DNA of 64,000 nucleotides from Nannocystis sp. SCPEA4 (GTDB lineage: Bacteria; Myxococcota_A; Polyangia; Nannocystales; Nannocystaceae). Below are positions 1 to 37,560 of the stretch, in pieces. Position 1 is the first letter of the stretch. Every line of letters begins with the position of its first letter. The notes below the pieces were generated by a model that saw only the letters and a list, made by a program, of their open reading frames with translations, was not told the origin of the DNA and made no database searches. A program made the translations under genes and the position numbers. The stretch is taken from positions 76,752-140,751 of the forward strand of contig NZ_JAPNJX010000001.1 of NCBI RefSeq assembly GCF_026626685.1. Reading direction: 5' to 3'.

Positions 1-386
1 TGCAGGAGGCCCAGGGCCGGCTCGCCGCCGCCGCCGAGGCGGGCCTGAACGGCCCCGCCGAGGCCATCGGCAAGGCCGTGCAGCTGCTCGCCGCCAGCGC
101 CATGCACCTCGCCGGCCTCGGCAAGGCGCGCAAGGTCGAGGCGGCGATGATCCAGGCCGTCCCCTTCACCCGCATGTTCGGCCTGGTGCTGCTCGCCATC
201 GAGTGCGTCGAGCAGGCCCTCGTCGCCGCCCGTCTCCGCGAGACCCGCGGCGACGACCCGCTGCTGGTCGGCAAACAGCGCAACCTCGAGTTCTTCGTCG
301 CCGCGCTCCTCCCCCAGGCGATCGCCCTCGGCAAGAGCATCCAGTCGAACGACGAGAGCGCGCTCGACCCGGCCCTGTTCGCCTGA
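1..386 (+). CDS. Acyl-CoA dehydrogenase family protein, C-terminal part (5' end outside window)
   Basis: Frame 3 is open from the window edge to the stop at 386. The C-terminal alpha-helical region resembles the FadE/AidB-type C-terminal domain, and GC3 is strongly biased. Confidence 0.5.
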   Translation, partial: QEAQGRLAAAAEAGLNGPAEAIGKAVQLLAASAMHLAGLGKARKVEAAMIQAVPFTRMFGLVLLAIECVEQALVAARLRETRGDDPLLVGKQRNLEFFVAALLPQAIALGKSIQSNDESALDPALFA

Positions 387-409
387 GCATTCAGGCAGGT
401 GCAAAAAGA

Positions 410-441
410 CAGGGCCGTGAGGACATGTCCTCACGGCCCTG
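410..441 (+). terminator. Perfect 32-bp palindrome cagggccgtgaggaCATGtcctcacggccctg immediately 3' of the acyl-CoA DH gene; probable bidirectional hairpin terminator / REP-like element
   Basis: Reverse complement is identical. Stem 14 bp around a CATG core, followed by ttcattc. Lies between convergent gene ends. Confidence 0.45.
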
Positions 442-577
442 TTCATTCGGGCATACAAGACCCCCCCTGCCGATCGAGCGACGCCCTCGTTCGAAGCGAC
501 CACTCCGCCTCACGACAAGCGGGGCCCGCCACACTCTTCTGGGGCGGCCTCGCGGCGGCGGAGTGGGACGCAGCGAG

Positions 578-1887
578 CAACCGTCAGGCGTGTCAAGGCA
601 TCTTCGTCCACGGCGTGTTGGACCGGACCATGGCGTTGAGGATGACAAGGAGCTTGCGCATGCAGGCCACGATAGCGACCTTGTCGGGTTTCCCGGAGGC
701 CCTCAGGTGCGCGTAGTACTCGGCGAGCTGCGAGTTGTAGGCGTGCCCGACGGCGGCGCGCGTCGTGGCGTACAGAGCCCGACGGATGTCATGCCGGCCG
801 CCTCGGATATGGCGTTCTCCGCGGTGCTTGCCCGAGTCACAGTTGAACGGTGCGACGCCGACAAGGGCGGCGATCGCCGTGCGGCTGAGCTTCCCGAGCT
901 CGGGAAGGCCAGCGAGAAGGGTCATCGAGAGCACACGACCTACGCCTGGAACGCTCTGGAGCAGCTTGTCGGCCTCGCGCCAGATCGGGCTGGCTTTGAT
1001 CGCTTTGCGGAGCTCCTTCTCGATGTCCTTGAGCTCCTGGTCGATCCACGCGACGTGGCGCTCGAGGCTCTGGCGCTCGCGCTTGTACAGTGCCGTTCGC
1101 AGCCGGTTGTTCTCGCTGATCTGGTTCTCTTGCAGCTGCTTGCGCCGACGAACGAGCGAGTCGATCTCCATCGTCTGCTCATCCTTGAGTGGCCGGGGCT
1201 CGGGCTTGAAGACCTCGGCGTACTCGGCGATCACGGCTGCGTCGATCTTGTCCGTCTTGGCGAGTCGGCCCTTGGCCTTGGCGAAGTCGCGGATCTGTCT
1301 CGCGTTCACCACCGCGACGGGGAGCCCAGCCGCGGCCAGCGCCGCTGCCACCGGGATCTCGTAGCCGCCTGTCGGTTCCATCACGATCAGCACCGGATCG
1401 AGCTGCTTCAGCCTGTCGATCAGGGCCGCGATAGCCGCCGGGTCATTGGCAATCTCAAACACCGGGCCTCGCGGTCCGAGGGCCACACAGAGGGTCTCCT
1501 TCGCAAGATCAATGCCGATGTACTGGTTCTTCGGGTCTTCTGGGGTCATGGCGATCCTTGCCGACGAATGTCCCGCGCCTCTCCCGCCGCCCTGCCTTGC
1601 AGGATTCGAGCTCGGTCTGACCGGCTCAGGCAACCGTTCGGGCTCTTGGAGAAGTCAACGCTTGGCGATCCTCGCTCTCTGGCGGGCTTGAGGCTCAGGG
1701 GCCCTACGATCTACCGAGCGCCCGGGAGCGAAGTCGTACCGCTTCTCAAGCCCACAAGCGGTTCGACAGCACACCAGAATTTCACTGGGAGAAAATCAAG
1801 GAGAGCGTCCGGCGATCCCTGCTCCCTGGCGGGCTCATGGCACCGGGGCCCCATCGATCTGCCGGACGCTCGGGGAGTTGATACAAG
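578..1887 (-). mobile_element. IS110-family insertion sequence (~1.31 kb), no obvious terminal IRs or target duplication
   Basis: Boundaries inferred from the uninterrupted repeat copy at 37100-37260. There is a single DEDD-type transposase ORF. The 335-bp non-coding arm is upstream of the transposase and the other arm is 15 bp, which is the typical IS110 asymmetry. Confidence 0.75.
593..1549 (-). CDS. IS110-family transposase (DEDD recombinase)
   Basis: N-terminal YIGIDLAKETLCVAL motif and C-terminal IS116/IS110/IS902 transposase-domain motifs (GVGRVLSMTLLAGLPELG, FNCDSGKHRGERHIRGGR). ATG at 1549. Confidence 0.85.
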   Translation of the reverse strand: MTPEDPKNQYIGIDLAKETLCVALGPRGPVFEIANDPAAIAALIDRLKQLDPVLIVMEPTGGYEIPVAAALAAAGLPVAVVNARQIRDFAKAKGRLAKTDKIDAAVIAEYAEVFKPEPRPLKDEQTMEIDSLVRRRKQLQENQISENNRLRTALYKRERQSLERHVAWIDQELKDIEKELRKAIKASPIWREADKLLQSVPGVGRVLSMTLLAGLPELGKLSRTAIAALVGVAPFNCDSGKHRGERHIRGGRHDIRRALYATTRAAVGHAYNSQLAEYYAHLRASGKPDKVAIVACMRKLLVILNAMVRSNTPWTKMP

Positions 1888-2158
1888 GGGCCCCATGCCT
1901 CACGCGCAGACGCGGGATCAATCTTCGGACATGCCCCATCGCCCTTCCGCGTCGAGCATGTGGCATGGCAGGTCTCGCGTCGCGAGGGACCCGCGCCGCC
2001 GCCGCGAGGCCGCCCCTCCCCGCTCCCCACGGCCCCGCGTCCTCGCGCACGCGATCCTCGACTCTCGCCTTCCCTCGCCGGCCTGGGCGACTCACCCGCA
2101 GAAAGCGACATGACCGCCAGGACATGTCCCGGCGGTCATGCTGTTGCGCCGCTGAACC

Positions 2159-3724
2159 TCAGGGCACCGCGGCCCACTCGCCGGTGGTGTCGGGGCACGC
2201 CGGCGTGAACACGGCCGTCTTCACCCACGCCTCGCCGGATTCGTCGAGCGTGTGGGCCGCGAGCGGGCTGCACACCTCGCCCTTGGCGTCGAAGTCGAGC
2301 GGCCCGGTGATGCCCGTGAGGTCGACGGACTTGCCGGTGGCGAACGCCGACAGCGCGGCGGGCACGAACATCTTCGGGCCCGTGCCGAAGTCGACCGGCA
2401 CGCCGGACTTGTCGGACAGCTTCTCCATCGCGTCGGCGACGCGCAGGCCGACGACGATGTCGCCGGACTTCACCGCGGCCATGCCGATCAGCGACGCCAT
2501 CGTCGCGTCGTAGGCGAGGCCGGCCTCGGGCGCCAGCGACGACTCGCCGAGGCGGGTGCGCAGCTTGGCGAGCTGCGGGGTGTCGAGGTCCGGGGTGATG
2601 GCGACGACGACGCCGGCGAGGTCCTTGTCCTTGAGCGCGGCGACCGCGGCCATCGCCCGCTGCGGCACGTAGATCTTCTGCGGCAGAGGGGCGCCGGTGG
2701 TCTTGTAGTACTTGATGATGTCGGCGACCTCGGCGCGGCCGAGCAGGACCAACATCTGCGGCATGTCGAAGCTCGTGAGCGCCGCGTCGAGCTTGGCCTT
2801 CGCGCCCTTGGTGGCGTCGTCGAGCCCGCGGTACGAGGCGATGAACTGGTTGCCGGGGACCTGGGGGATCTGGCTCGGACCGCCCGTCTCCTCGGTCGCC
2901 ACCGCGTTGTAGAGGCTGAGCCCGTACGCGTCCTCCGCCAGCAGCAGCACCGCGTTCGCGTCGGGGACGCCCATGAAGTCGGCGCCGATCCGGGCGCCGA
3001 GCGCCGGGCCCTGGTACTTGGCGCCGGCCATCGCCTGGAAGACCAGGTTGGCCGAGGTGTCGAGCTCGCTCATGTCGGCCGTGACCATCGGCCCCATCGT
3101 GAACGCGTTGACGCCGGGGGCGAACGTCACCTGGTCGACCACCGCCGTGAACTCGACGTCGTCGACCGGGCCGATGAGCACCGGGATCGCCAGCGTGTCG
3201 CCGAGGTGGCGGCCGGCCGACGTCGCCGACGCCACCTCGCTCTTGGTGTCGCAGACCACCAGCGCGATCTTGTCGCCGTTCGGCAGCTCGCCGGAGCCGT
3301 TGAACTCCTCGACCGCCGCCAGCACGCCCTTCTCCATCGCCTCGCCGAGCGCCGCGTCAGCGCCGGTCTTCGGCAGCATCACGCCGATGAAGGCGACGTC
3401 GTCGCTGACCTCGCCACCGGGGTAGATCGGCGCGCCGCACTCGTCGGTCTCGGTCGACGCACACTCGCGCGGCGCGCTCGAGGTGGCGCAGATGAACGCC
3501 TCGCCGAGGCCCGCGCACTGCGAGTTGGCGTCGCAGCCTTTCTCGCGGACCTGGCAGGTGTTGGCCGCGCAGTACATCGGCTTGTTGTCGTCGAAGAAGG
3601 CCGCGCAGTCGGCGTCCTCGTAGCACTCGGTGAAGTCGAGCGTCGCCGAGCACGCGCCCGCGATCACCCCGAGGACGCCGCAGACAGAGATCCGGGTCAG
3701 CATATGCGAGAAGACAGACGACAT
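2159..3724 (-). CDS. Periplasmic ligand-binding lipoprotein (type-1 PBP, Leu/Ile/Val-binding/ANF-receptor-like) with N-terminal Cys-rich module
   Basis: Lipobox VIAGAC, then a Cys-rich ~90 aa region, then a PBP1-like fold. ATG start with RBS. Confidence 0.65.
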   Translation of the reverse strand: MSSVFSHMLTRISVCGVLGVIAGACSATLDFTECYEDADCAAFFDDNKPMYCAANTCQVREKGCDANSQCAGLGEAFICATSSAPRECASTETDECGAPIYPGGEVSDDVAFIGVMLPKTGADAALGEAMEKGVLAAVEEFNGSGELPNGDKIALVVCDTKSEVASATSAGRHLGDTLAIPVLIGPVDDVEFTAVVDQVTFAPGVNAFTMGPMVTADMSELDTSANLVFQAMAGAKYQGPALGARIGADFMGVPDANAVLLLAEDAYGLSLYNAVATEETGGPSQIPQVPGNQFIASYRGLDDATKGAKAKLDAALTSFDMPQMLVLLGRAEVADIIKYYKTTGAPLPQKIYVPQRAMAAVAALKDKDLAGVVVAITPDLDTPQLAKLRTRLGESSLAPEAGLAYDATMASLIGMAAVKSGDIVVGLRVADAMEKLSDKSGVPVDFGTGPKMFVPAALSAFATGKSVDLTGITGPLDFDAKGEVCSPLAAHTLDESGEAWVKTAVFTPACPDTTGEWAAVP

Positions 3725-36261: not shown

Positions 36262-36597
36262 CCTCGAGCTGCGACGCATCTCTTGTTCCGCATTGGCGCG
36301 GGACCTCGAGCTGCGACTCGTCTCTTGTTTCGCGCGGGCGCGGGGCCTCGAGCTGCGACACATCTCTTGGTCCGCATTGGCGCGGGGCCTCGAGCTGCGA
36401 CGCATCTCTTGGTCCGCATTGGCGCGGGGCCTCGAGCTGCGACGCATCTCTTGGTCCGCATTGGCGCGGGGCCTCGAGCTGCGACGCATCTCTTGGTCCG
36501 CATTGGCGCGGAACCTCGAGCTGCGGCTCGTCTCTTGTTCCGCGCCGGTGCGGGGCCTCGAGCTGCGCCTCGTCTCTTGTTCCGCGCTGGCGCGGGG
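36262..36597. repeat. 42-bp minisatellite x8 (cctcgagctgcgacgcatctcttggtccgcattggcgcgggg), non-coding
   Basis: Eight head-to-tail units, the central four identical. The periodic ORFs on both strands are repeat artefacts. Confidence 0.8.
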
Positions 36598-36879
36598 CCA
36601 CGGAGACCCGGGGGGGTCGGCCCGGGCGCGGCGGAGCGGGTCCCTCGCTACGCGAGACCTGCCATGCCAGGTGCTCGCCGGCGATGTTTTGCTCTCCGCT
36701 TTCCGAAGGTTCTCTCGCCGTCTGCGCGCCAGGCATGGGGCCCCTCGCTGCGTCCCACTCCGCCGCGCCCGGGCCGACCCAGAAGATCCTCGAGCGGCCC
36801 CGCTCATCCCCGCGCGGCTGTCCCTTCGGTCCTGCTTCCAGGAACCTGTCTGAACGAGCAGGAGTGACGCTCTCCGTCT

Positions 36880-37560
36880 CTCGACAAGCGGTACCCCTCA
36901 CGCCCTCCGTTCTCTCGTTCGAAGCGACCATCTCCGCCTCACGACAAGCAGGGCCCGCCACGACCTCCTCGCGCGAAGCGACCATCTCCGCCTCACGACA
37001 AGCGGGGCCCGCCACTGCCTCCGCTCTCTCGCTCGAAGCGACCATCTCCGCCTCACGGCAAGCGGGGCCCGCCACGGCCTCCGCTCTCTCGCGCGAAGCG
37101 GTCATCTCCGCCTCACGACAAGCGGGGCCCACCACAATCTTCTGGGGCGGCCTCGCGGCGGCGGAGTGGGACGCAGCGAGGGGCCCCATGCCTCACGCGC
37201 AGACGCGGGATCAATCCTCGGACATGCCCCATCGCCCTTCCGCGTCGAGCATGTGGCATGGCAGGTCTCGCGTCGCGAGGGACCCGCTCCGCCGCCGCGA
37301 GGCCGCCCCTCCCCGCTCCCCACGGCCCCGCGTCTCCGCACACGCGATTCCCGATGCCTCTCGCCTGAGCCGCTCCCCACGGCCCCGCGTCCCCGCGCAC
37401 GCGATCCGAGACGACTCTCGCCTGAGCCGCTCCTCACGGCCCCGCGTCCCCGCGCACGTGCTCTTCGACGCGTCTCGCCCGAGCCGCCCGAGCAGCCCCG
37501 CGTCCGAGCACGCCTGATTCCCGTCCCGACAGCAGAAGCCCGCAGAACATTGAGAGCAAA
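36880..37560. repeat. Dispersed composite repeat, copy B: ~60-bp unit x4.5 (36885-37140), shared core (37100-37330), second ~58-bp unit x3 (37330-37500)
   Basis: ~95% identity to 505-577 plus 1888-2050. Both tandem blocks are collapsed to one unit in copy A. Contains the GGACATGCCCCAT motif. Confidence 0.75.

Follow-up and report, generated by a model that had tools for sequence, protein, structure and literature searches.

Does the long non-coding arm upstream of an IS110-family recombinase gene in Nannocystis sp. SCPEA4 (Myxococcota) encode a bridge RNA, and what is to be made of a structured module that this arm holds twice? The arm belongs to an insertion sequence (IS) at positions 578 to 1885, minus strand, of a 64,000-nt stretch of contig NZ_JAPNJX010000001.1, hereafter called the window, whose numbering is used throughout. 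Bridge RNAs have been described and engineered with one target and one donor loop, and in IS621 target binding falls to the first internal loop and donor binding to the second (PMC11208160). We consider it highly probable that the arm is a bridge-RNA locus. With moderate confidence we read its sequence as a locus with two functional target loops and one donor loop.

The minus-strand open reading frame 1549-593 encodes an IS110-family recombinase of 318 aa with Pfam matches to DEDD_Tnp_IS110 (PF01548, E 1.3e-28) and Transposase_20 (PF02371, E 5.3e-15). Both the N-terminal DEDD (RuvC-like) domain and the C-terminal Tnp domain with the catalytic serine are present, and the catalytic residues D14, E58, D100, D103 and S239 align with D11, E60, D102, D105 and S241 of the IS621 recombinase of E. 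coli, to which the protein is 35% identical. An NCBI protein of Nannocystis sp. SCPEA4, found on one contig, is 100% identical to it. Self-comparison of the window revealed that 486-577 and 1886-2070 are two halves of one flanking repeat, and a paralogous uninterrupted copy of this repeat at 37088-37366 aligns to both halves with 92-95% identity. Because the uninterrupted copy aligns to both junctions, the element is delimited as 578-1885. The core dinucleotide, AG on the plus strand and CT on the strand of the recombinase, is found a single time in the empty site and is present at both junctions of the aligned element (576-577 at the right end, 1886-1887 at the left end). On the plus strand the empty site (37170-37187) reads ...GCAGCGAG/GGGCCCCATG..., where the part right of the slash begins with GGGCCCC; read in the sense direction, the target is CATGGGGCCC-CT-CGCTGCG. 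After excision the ends are predicted to join in the circle as ...CCTTGACACGCCTGACGGTTG-CT-TGTATCAACTCCCC... The upstream non-coding arm (left end) measures 336 nt (1550-1885), its first bases at 1878-1885 including the right donor half TGTATCA (1879-1885), and the downstream arm (right end) measures 15 nt (578-592) with the left donor half ACGGTTG at 578-584. No inverted repeats were found at the element's own ends, those bracketing the element lying in the flanking repeat only. The element is an intact insertion sequence of the IS110 subgroup with a long left end, a 15-nt right end and a CT core. This is the layout that the initial annotation had proposed, and its estimate of 335 bp for the upstream arm against about 15 bp for the other is borne out by the alignment with the empty site.

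Inside the arm we found a 67-nt direct repeat (1664-1704 versus 1811-1851, 80% identity), which represents two copies of one structured module. Each copy has an outer stem with GATC/GATC at its end, then a 5' loop and a 3' loop on either side of a small GGGC...GCCC hairpin. A covariance model with 16 base pairs (R1) was built from 17 modules; as training sequences, the 5'-most copy (module A, 1803-1871, minus strand) scores 81.2 bits and the copy adjoining the donor loop (module B, 1657-1722, minus strand) 70.6 bits. In module B the 5' loop tAGGGCCCCTga contains the left target guide AGGGCCCCT (1697-1705, AGGGGCCCT on the plus strand), in which GGGCCCCT agrees in 8 of 8 positions with the final 6 nt of the left target half joined to the CT core. 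This 8-mer, found in 1.9% of 20,000 dinucleotide-preserving shuffles of the arm, is the segment in which the initial annotation had seen a match to the target core, and the match is real. The right target guide region occupies the 3' loop AGAGAGCGAG (1671-1680), where AGCGAG is the exact reverse complement of CTCGCT, i.e. of the core CT plus CGCT (6/6). The outer stem of module A is a perfect helix of 15 bp between GAGCGTCCGGCaGATC and GATCGCCGGACGCTC, present in the minimum-free-energy fold, and its 5' loop ATGGGGCCCCgg contains the left target guide ATGGGGCCCCg (1844-1854). Here ATGGGGCCCC (1845-1854) matches 10 consecutive target bases, a match found in 0.11% of 20,000 shuffles (p 0.0011). 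The two bases following each right guide can be compared with the handshake guide of IS621, a dinucleotide just 3' of the right guide that, once strands have been exchanged, base-pairs with the other DNA at its positions 6-7 (PMC11208158). In loop A the right guide AGGGAG is followed by CA (together 1820-1827), which complements TG at donor positions 6-7 of ACGGTTG; in loop B the in-register right guide AGAGAG is followed by CG, which against the donor TG would give one pair and a G-T. Judged by these guides, both target loops would recognise GGGGCCC-CT-CGCT, a site inside the local repeat element. We also considered that either target loop might recognise the left or right junction for excision, and rejected this since their 3' sides lack an in-register complement of the left end of the CAAG type.

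The third loop (1578-1654, minus strand) was identified as the donor-binding loop by a guide that equals the right end of the element and by helices conserved in relatives; it ends about 30 nt before the recombinase start codon. In its outer stem CTTCTCC (1648-1654) pairs with GGGAGAGG (1578-1585), followed by a GCCC/GGGC helix. The left donor guide ACGGTTGCC (1629-1637) reads ACGGTTGCc, which corresponds to the last 7 nt of the element plus the core C, the inner hairpin GAGCCGGTCAGACCGAGCTC (1608-1627) folds as GAGC-CGGT-cag-ACCG-a-GCTC, and in the right donor guide region GAATCCTGCAAGG (1595-1607) CAAG complements CT plus TG of the left-end start. The donor match ACGGTTGC (1630-1637) was found in 0.26% of 20,000 dinucleotide-preserving arm shuffles, and jointly with the target 8-mer GGGCCCCT in none of the 20,000. 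Among relatives with aligned donor loops, 24 of 29 carry the donor guide 7-mer exactly at the right end, followed by CT; seven variants of the guide occur, including ACGGTTG, ACACCTG, ACAGTTG, ACAGCCG, ACAGTCG and ATAGCTG. The helices were named by hand and their pairing was then counted: pairing across relatives amounts to 82-100% in the inner hairpin and the GCCC/GGGC helix, with a switch from A-U to G-C in the inner hairpin of 10 sequences, and to only 57% in the outermost helix across distant relatives. RNAalifold predicted only 3 pairs on the donor-loop alignment, because of gaps. The guide segment suspected initially was thus one part of the picture, the target guide having been seen, while the second target loop and the donor loop went unrecognised.

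Between the two target loops lies a hairpin, GTCGaACCGCTT...AAGCGGTaCGAC (1733-1767, minus strand), which appears in minimum-free-energy folds and, seen from module B, is placed like the 5' stem-loop in canonical bridge RNAs. The spacers of several relatives (numbered with L below) hold predicted hairpins of differing sequence, each then followed by GTACGA and clearest in L130 and L134, and in relatives the left end and module A are separated by an additional stem-loop. By eye we noted a T-rich tract TCCTTGATTTTCT (1790-1802, minus strand) directly 3' of the module A stem, with clearer T runs at the same place in L001 (GCTTTTTTCC) and L130 (TTTTT). This tract may be the end of an RNA comprising loop A only; a terminator scan of the integrated element called none inside the arm, the T-rich tract included. 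As to transcription, a -35 box TTGACA (591-596) overlaps the recombinase stop codon and a -10-like TATCAA is located at 1878-1883. Joining the ends through one CT gives TTGACA-17 nt-TATCAA (read by eye), and relatives keep TTGAC(A/G)-N17-TATCA(A/G) across their joined ends. No sigma-70-like promoter was called in the integrated copy of the element.

From this anatomy we propose the following scheme. Transcription from the junction promoter would set in close to the first base of loop A and proceed, 5' to 3' on the minus strand, through loop A, the hairpin spacer, loop B and the donor loop. The 5' side of each target loop would carry the left half plus the core, the 3' side would complement the core plus the right half, and the donor loop would recognise the joined circle ends ACGGTTG-CT-TGTATCA. 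Provided that the RNA is made and both target loops are active, as we suppose, the extra loop would raise the supply of target modules relative to donor modules, be it in one three-loop RNA or through a separate RNA with loop A only.

The strongest evidence for the loops comes from related elements, of which we collected 144 loci by protein-guided searches of genomes and metagenomes and by protein-cluster look-ups. In some 70 related loci R1 locates the loop module before the recombinase gene, and 7 of 11 outer-stem pairs of the model have changed on both sides, so that the arm is conserved among relatives, as the initial annotation had required of a bridge-RNA locus, with its stems kept by compensatory changes. 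In about 55 loci with a recombinase of ≤63% identity there is exactly one module, upstream of the recombinase and on its strand, whereas all nine sampled IS types with a recombinase of ≥67% identity have two or three. Two modules are present in the element of the window and in the types L001/L002/L043/L129, L044/L126, L130-133, L134 and L143/144, three in L042 (the same as L122-124) and L128, and at least three in L142. These multi-loop loci come from two cultured Nannocystis genomes, one Polyangiaceae metagenome-assembled genome and several unrelated metagenomes, and given such varied sources the layout is not an assembly artefact. The single-loop relatives (L045/L135 at 63%; L015, L049 and L046 at 41-53%) have the donor-loop consensus AGAGCCCGAAC-guide-GAGC...GCTCGAAT..GCAAGG.AGGGC in common with the present element, and likewise the target module ..AGATCG-guide-GGGC hairpin-guide-GATCGC.., the CT core and the TGTAT start. 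They differ from it in having one target loop instead of two, placed directly before the donor loop, i.e. in the position of module B. This position and the TCCCGG motif before it suggest that module B corresponds to the single loop of L045/L135, although sequence comparison of the target loops with the outgroup loop is not decisive (68% versus 66%).

The insertion site could be recovered for eight of the nine multi-loop types, the exception being L142. The sites are GGGGCCC-CT-CGCT in the window, ACATGTC-CT-GA for the L001 type (four independent insertions), TGGGTCC-CT-CGC for L122, GGGTCCC-CT-CCGC for L128, ATGGGGG-CT-CGTT for L130, AACAGTC-CT-CGCC for L134, TCGGCC-CT-CTCG for L126/L044 and TGGGTCC-CT-CGCG for L143. 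Seven of these eight types were scored against cognate and non-cognate sites, while L143 was compared by eye. The left guide of the A-type modules matches the cognate site in 8.1 of 9 positions versus 5.2 of 9 for non-cognate sites, and that of the B-type modules in 6.4 versus 4.6 of 9; as a control, the guides of 37 single-loop relatives match their flanks in 7.4 of 9 positions on average, with the first position usually unmatched. In every type with a recovered site other than that of the window, the A-type guide fits its own site in 8-9 of 9 positions. The B type shares with the A type of the same element a guide core of 6 nt (GGGCCC, CATGTC, CAGTCC, GGGTGC, CGGCC, GGTCCC) and departs from it at distal positions and, in many cases, in the second base of the core, which then reads CA or CC.

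The helices of both types are likewise conserved. A-type outer stems are 97% paired with both sides changed at 6 of 15 pairs, and their inner hairpins are 94% paired; B-type outer stems are also 97% paired, with both sides changed at 8 of 12 pairs. When the stem partners are slid by 1-3 columns, pairing falls to 24-43% in both sets, and the G-U pairs that recur in the stems are those expected of the recombinase strand, not of its complement. Outside the guides A-type modules are 77% identical among themselves and 61% identical to B-type modules. Within elements A-B identity outside the guides is 0.51-0.73 and no higher than between elements (0.61), so that the duplication must be old. By the same identities, recent gene conversion is an unlikely cause of the shared guides, except possibly in the window and in L128. 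That multi-guide bridge RNAs, with two to three independently evolving functional target loops and one donor loop, arose in one clade of IS110 elements in the Myxococcota, we put forward as a tentative proposal whose chances we rate just short of even.

How does this layout relate to known systems? With IS621 (PMC11208160, PMC11208158) the element shares a recombinase with DEDD and serine residues, a long left and a short right end, the CT core and the TGTAT start, the same rule for the 5' and 3' sides of the internal loops and a promoter assembled across the joined ends. In both, the left donor guide mismatches the second core base (ACGGTTGCc here, ACAGTATCa in IS621), and the 3' side of the donor loop, GAATCCTGCAAGG, resembles TAATCCGTATTTGCAAGG of IS621. 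In contrast to IS621, which has one target and one donor loop in about 177 nt, two target loops and one donor loop occupy about 300 nt here. The rule of exactly two loops after a 5' stem-loop therefore fails, the first target loop having no stem-loop before it, although the hairpin, loop B and the donor loop alone would fit the two-loop layout. Target and donor loops of one synaptic complex come from different RNA molecules (PMC11208158), split bridge-RNA loops were functional in published work, and for CazIS110-1 a target-loop-only RNA, about 10-fold more abundant than the full RNA, was reported to move the left junction to a new site (bioRxiv 10.1101/2025.10.25.684509). Loops supplied by different molecules and an active loop-only RNA make a stand-alone or extra target loop plausible. 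As in CazIS110-1, target modules could be supplied in excess, since an extra 5' loop and a T-rich tract could give the same stoichiometry; the loop-only RNA of CazIS110-1, however, is a truncated single bridge RNA, whereas here the second loop is encoded as a module of its own. The seekRNAs of IS1111/IS110 elements (Siddiquee et al. 2024, PMC11187229) are similar in that non-coding segments match the target flanks and guide the choice of site, and in the IS110-type elements the non-coding region also lies upstream of the recombinase gene (PMC11187229). The IS1111 elements differ in having the RNA downstream and subterminal inverted repeats, neither of which is found in the present element. No mention of duplicated or additional target loops, nor of any natural architecture other than one target plus one donor loop, turned up in the one library that we searched, nor on word search in the companion texts of the two 2024 Nature papers, the seekRNA paper, the preprint on IS622 and a review of September 2026; absence from one library is no proof of novelty.

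Several observations weigh against a locus with two active target loops, or against a bridge-RNA locus altogether. Neither loop of this element fits its site perfectly in register: in the register of the relatives loop A gives TGGGGCC-CC, shifted by one base against the real site, and its right guide AGGGAG matches in 5 of 6 positions with one mismatch, while in loop B the perfect AGCGAG sits 4 nt out of register and the in-register AGAGAG also matches in 5 of 6 positions with one mismatch. Module A is preceded by only 15 nt, without a 5' stem-loop, and the B-type inner hairpin is only 66% paired. We found no insertion that needs a B-type guide, all recovered sites (1-4 per type) fitting the A type. 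The element appears to be single-copy, and two perfect target sites in the window stand empty, one inside the paralogous repeat (GGGGCCC-CT-CGCT at 37175-37187, minus strand) and one at 36737-36749 (plus strand). A search of 1-3000 against Rfam 15 with permissive E-values yielded no family at threshold and none named bridge RNA. R1 scored the IS621 target loop at 7.1 bits (E 0.9, not significant); without a model-level link, the connection to IS621 rests on protein homology and common layout. Minimum-free-energy z-scores of the arm on either strand (-0.7, -1.0, -1.2) are not significant against shuffles, and the whole-arm fold misses the module B stem, which has one C-A mismatch. Of the structural check proposed at the outset, the comparative part thus supports the locus by covariation, while single-sequence folds do no better than shuffles. 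Fold energies, Rfam and the promoter scan being uninformative, the case rests on the correspondence with the element's own ends and on the relatives. The initial annotation had named the lack of a conserved structured RNA, of arm conservation and of complementarity to target or donor ends as grounds for giving up the bridge-RNA assignment; in each respect the opposite was found, and the loops match target and donor ends in the IS621 arrangement.

What, then, could the second target loop be for? One view is that the loops widen the target range, each specifying another variant of a repeated site. In L044/L126 loop A reads ATCGGCC-CT-CTCG and loop B CGGGCCC-CT-CATG (L044) or CCGGCCC-CC-CATG (L126), the three loops of L122 read TGGGTCC-CT, ATGGATC-CT and GGGATCC-CC with one right guide common to all, and L128 has three differing left guides. 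The targets are also part of repeat families whose members vary, as with CGGGTCCCTCGCT at 36637 next to GGGGCCCCTCGCT. We nevertheless hold this view to be unlikely, as both loops in the window point to essentially the same site and the recovered insertions of every type, a thin sample of 1-4 sites each, all fit the A-type guide.

Another view takes the locus for a canonical single bridge RNA composed of the spacer hairpin, loop B and the donor loop (about 1767-1578), with loop A as an inert leftover of duplication. These three parts do reproduce the published order of 5' stem-loop, target loop and donor loop, the left guide that fits better in register is, in this element, the one of loop B, with its CT intact, and loop A has lost its upstream stem-loop here. 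An inert loop A is, however, hard to reconcile with the better conservation of A-type modules among themselves than between types (77% versus 61%), with their stems at 97% pairing and compensatory changes and their inner hairpins at 94%, and with guides that fit actual insertion sites in 8-9 of 9 positions in every other recovered type. An A-type guide retuned with each change of target is not expected of an inert relic, and we regard this explanation as rather improbable.

The reverse assignment, in which loop A and the donor loop form the working bridge RNA and loop B is a decaying copy that serves as a structural spacer only, seems to us similarly improbable. It would account for B-type guides lying further from the real sites (6.4 versus 8.1 of 9), for the frequent mismatch at the second core base (CA or CC), for the poorer pairing of the B-type inner hairpin (66%) and for the lack of insertions needing a B-type guide. 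Decay is contradicted by the 97% pairing of B-type outer stems with 8 of 12 pairs changed on both sides, by the 6-nt guide core that B shares with A in each element while the cores are wholly different between elements, and by the window itself, where loop B is the best-matched loop. Moreover, CA at the core position also occurs in some single-loop relatives and is therefore not a mark of decay. Finally, that the arm is nothing more than a promoter or 5' untranslated region with target and donor matches by chance is extremely improbable: short matches do come easier in a GC-rich arm where GGGGCCCC is palindromic, fold energies are no better than those of shuffles and no internal promoter was called, but the target and donor 8-mers were never found jointly in 20,000 shuffles, and guide-to-end covariation in dozens of relatives together with compensatory base-pair changes speaks against chance. 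The reading with two functional target loops and one donor loop thus remains the one we prefer.

Some further features were noted in and around the arm. A third copy of the 3'-stem motif (GGATCGCCA, sense) at 1549-1561 overlaps the ribosome-binding region and the ATG of the recombinase gene and could pair, as an alternative partner, with the 5' stem strand of either target loop (GGCaGATC); at the recombinase start relatives read CAAGGA(T/C)AGCCATG. The sequence after module A (1790-1830, minus strand), TTTTCTCCCAGTGAAATTCTGG, resembles the inter-loop stretch CTTTCTCCCAAAGTGATAAACCGG of IS621 (L141, 1770-1795). Most close relatives have in their spacers a (C/A)(A/G/C)TGAAA motif, or CAGTGAAG in the case of L122, and this may be what the duplication has left of the 5' strand of a donor loop.

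The surroundings of the element and of its empty sites are rich in related sequences. The terminator hairpins of both genes flanking the IS (409-442 and 2109-2140) carry GGACATGTCC at the tip, and the palindrome GACATGTC-CT is the insertion site of a sister IS (L001/L002/L043/L129). Sites with at most 2 mismatches from GACATGTCCTGA number 19 in the window versus 3.4 expected. Region 36500-37450 is a cluster of short repeats with four tandem units of about 55-65 bp (CGAAGCGACCATCTCCGCCTCACGACAAGCGGGGCCCGCCAC), which also holds two inverted copies of the repeat interrupted by the IS and both empty target sites. The variant CGGGTCCCTCGCT at 36637, in the same cluster, matches the target type of the related IS in L122/L143.

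Two observations concern other loci. The only Rfam match in the arm is sX15 (RF02234) on the opposite strand (1571-1732, plus strand), at 23.8 bits versus a threshold of 55 (E 0.46). In reverse complement the sX15 consensus, GCCCGAACAGTTGCTTGAGC..GCTCGAAGT..GACTGGGCGGGC, looks like the donor-loop consensus of the present family. In Xanthomonas, asX7 is the complementary partner of sX15, and Stenotrophomonas K279a has 10 homologues (PMC3300014); the sX15/asX7 locus may be an IS110 bridge-RNA locus modelled on the other strand. In E. coli, an IS621 copy (L141, NZ_CP024240.1, 1560-1760) contains a partial tandem duplication of 72 bp of its left end, which restarts (TGTATTATCCC...) exactly after ATCGGGC-CT, the DNA of the left target guide. 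As this guide DNA is identical to the left half of a target together with the core, recombination of the element with the DNA that encodes its own guide seems to have taken place; in two other E. coli genomes the best matches are likewise split in two pieces.

If the second loop were inert, the element would be an ordinary new member of the IS110 bridge-RNA family. A target module that was duplicated once or twice and kept under selection would indicate that such modules are portable units, and a natural multi-loop lineage would mean that the recombinase tolerates RNAs with extra loops. If functional, extra loops could address several variants of a repeated site, or act as stand-alone target modules that shift the balance between circle insertion and direct transfer, which bears on the debate over target-loop-only RNAs and alternative transposition routes. 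The stoichiometry of target to donor loops, or multi-site targeting, may thus be an evolved variable in this family. The relatives would offer about nine natural designs with cognate sites for multiplexed or higher-efficiency bridge editing, and the multi-guide reading, if true, would be a natural precedent for multiplexed bridge recombination.

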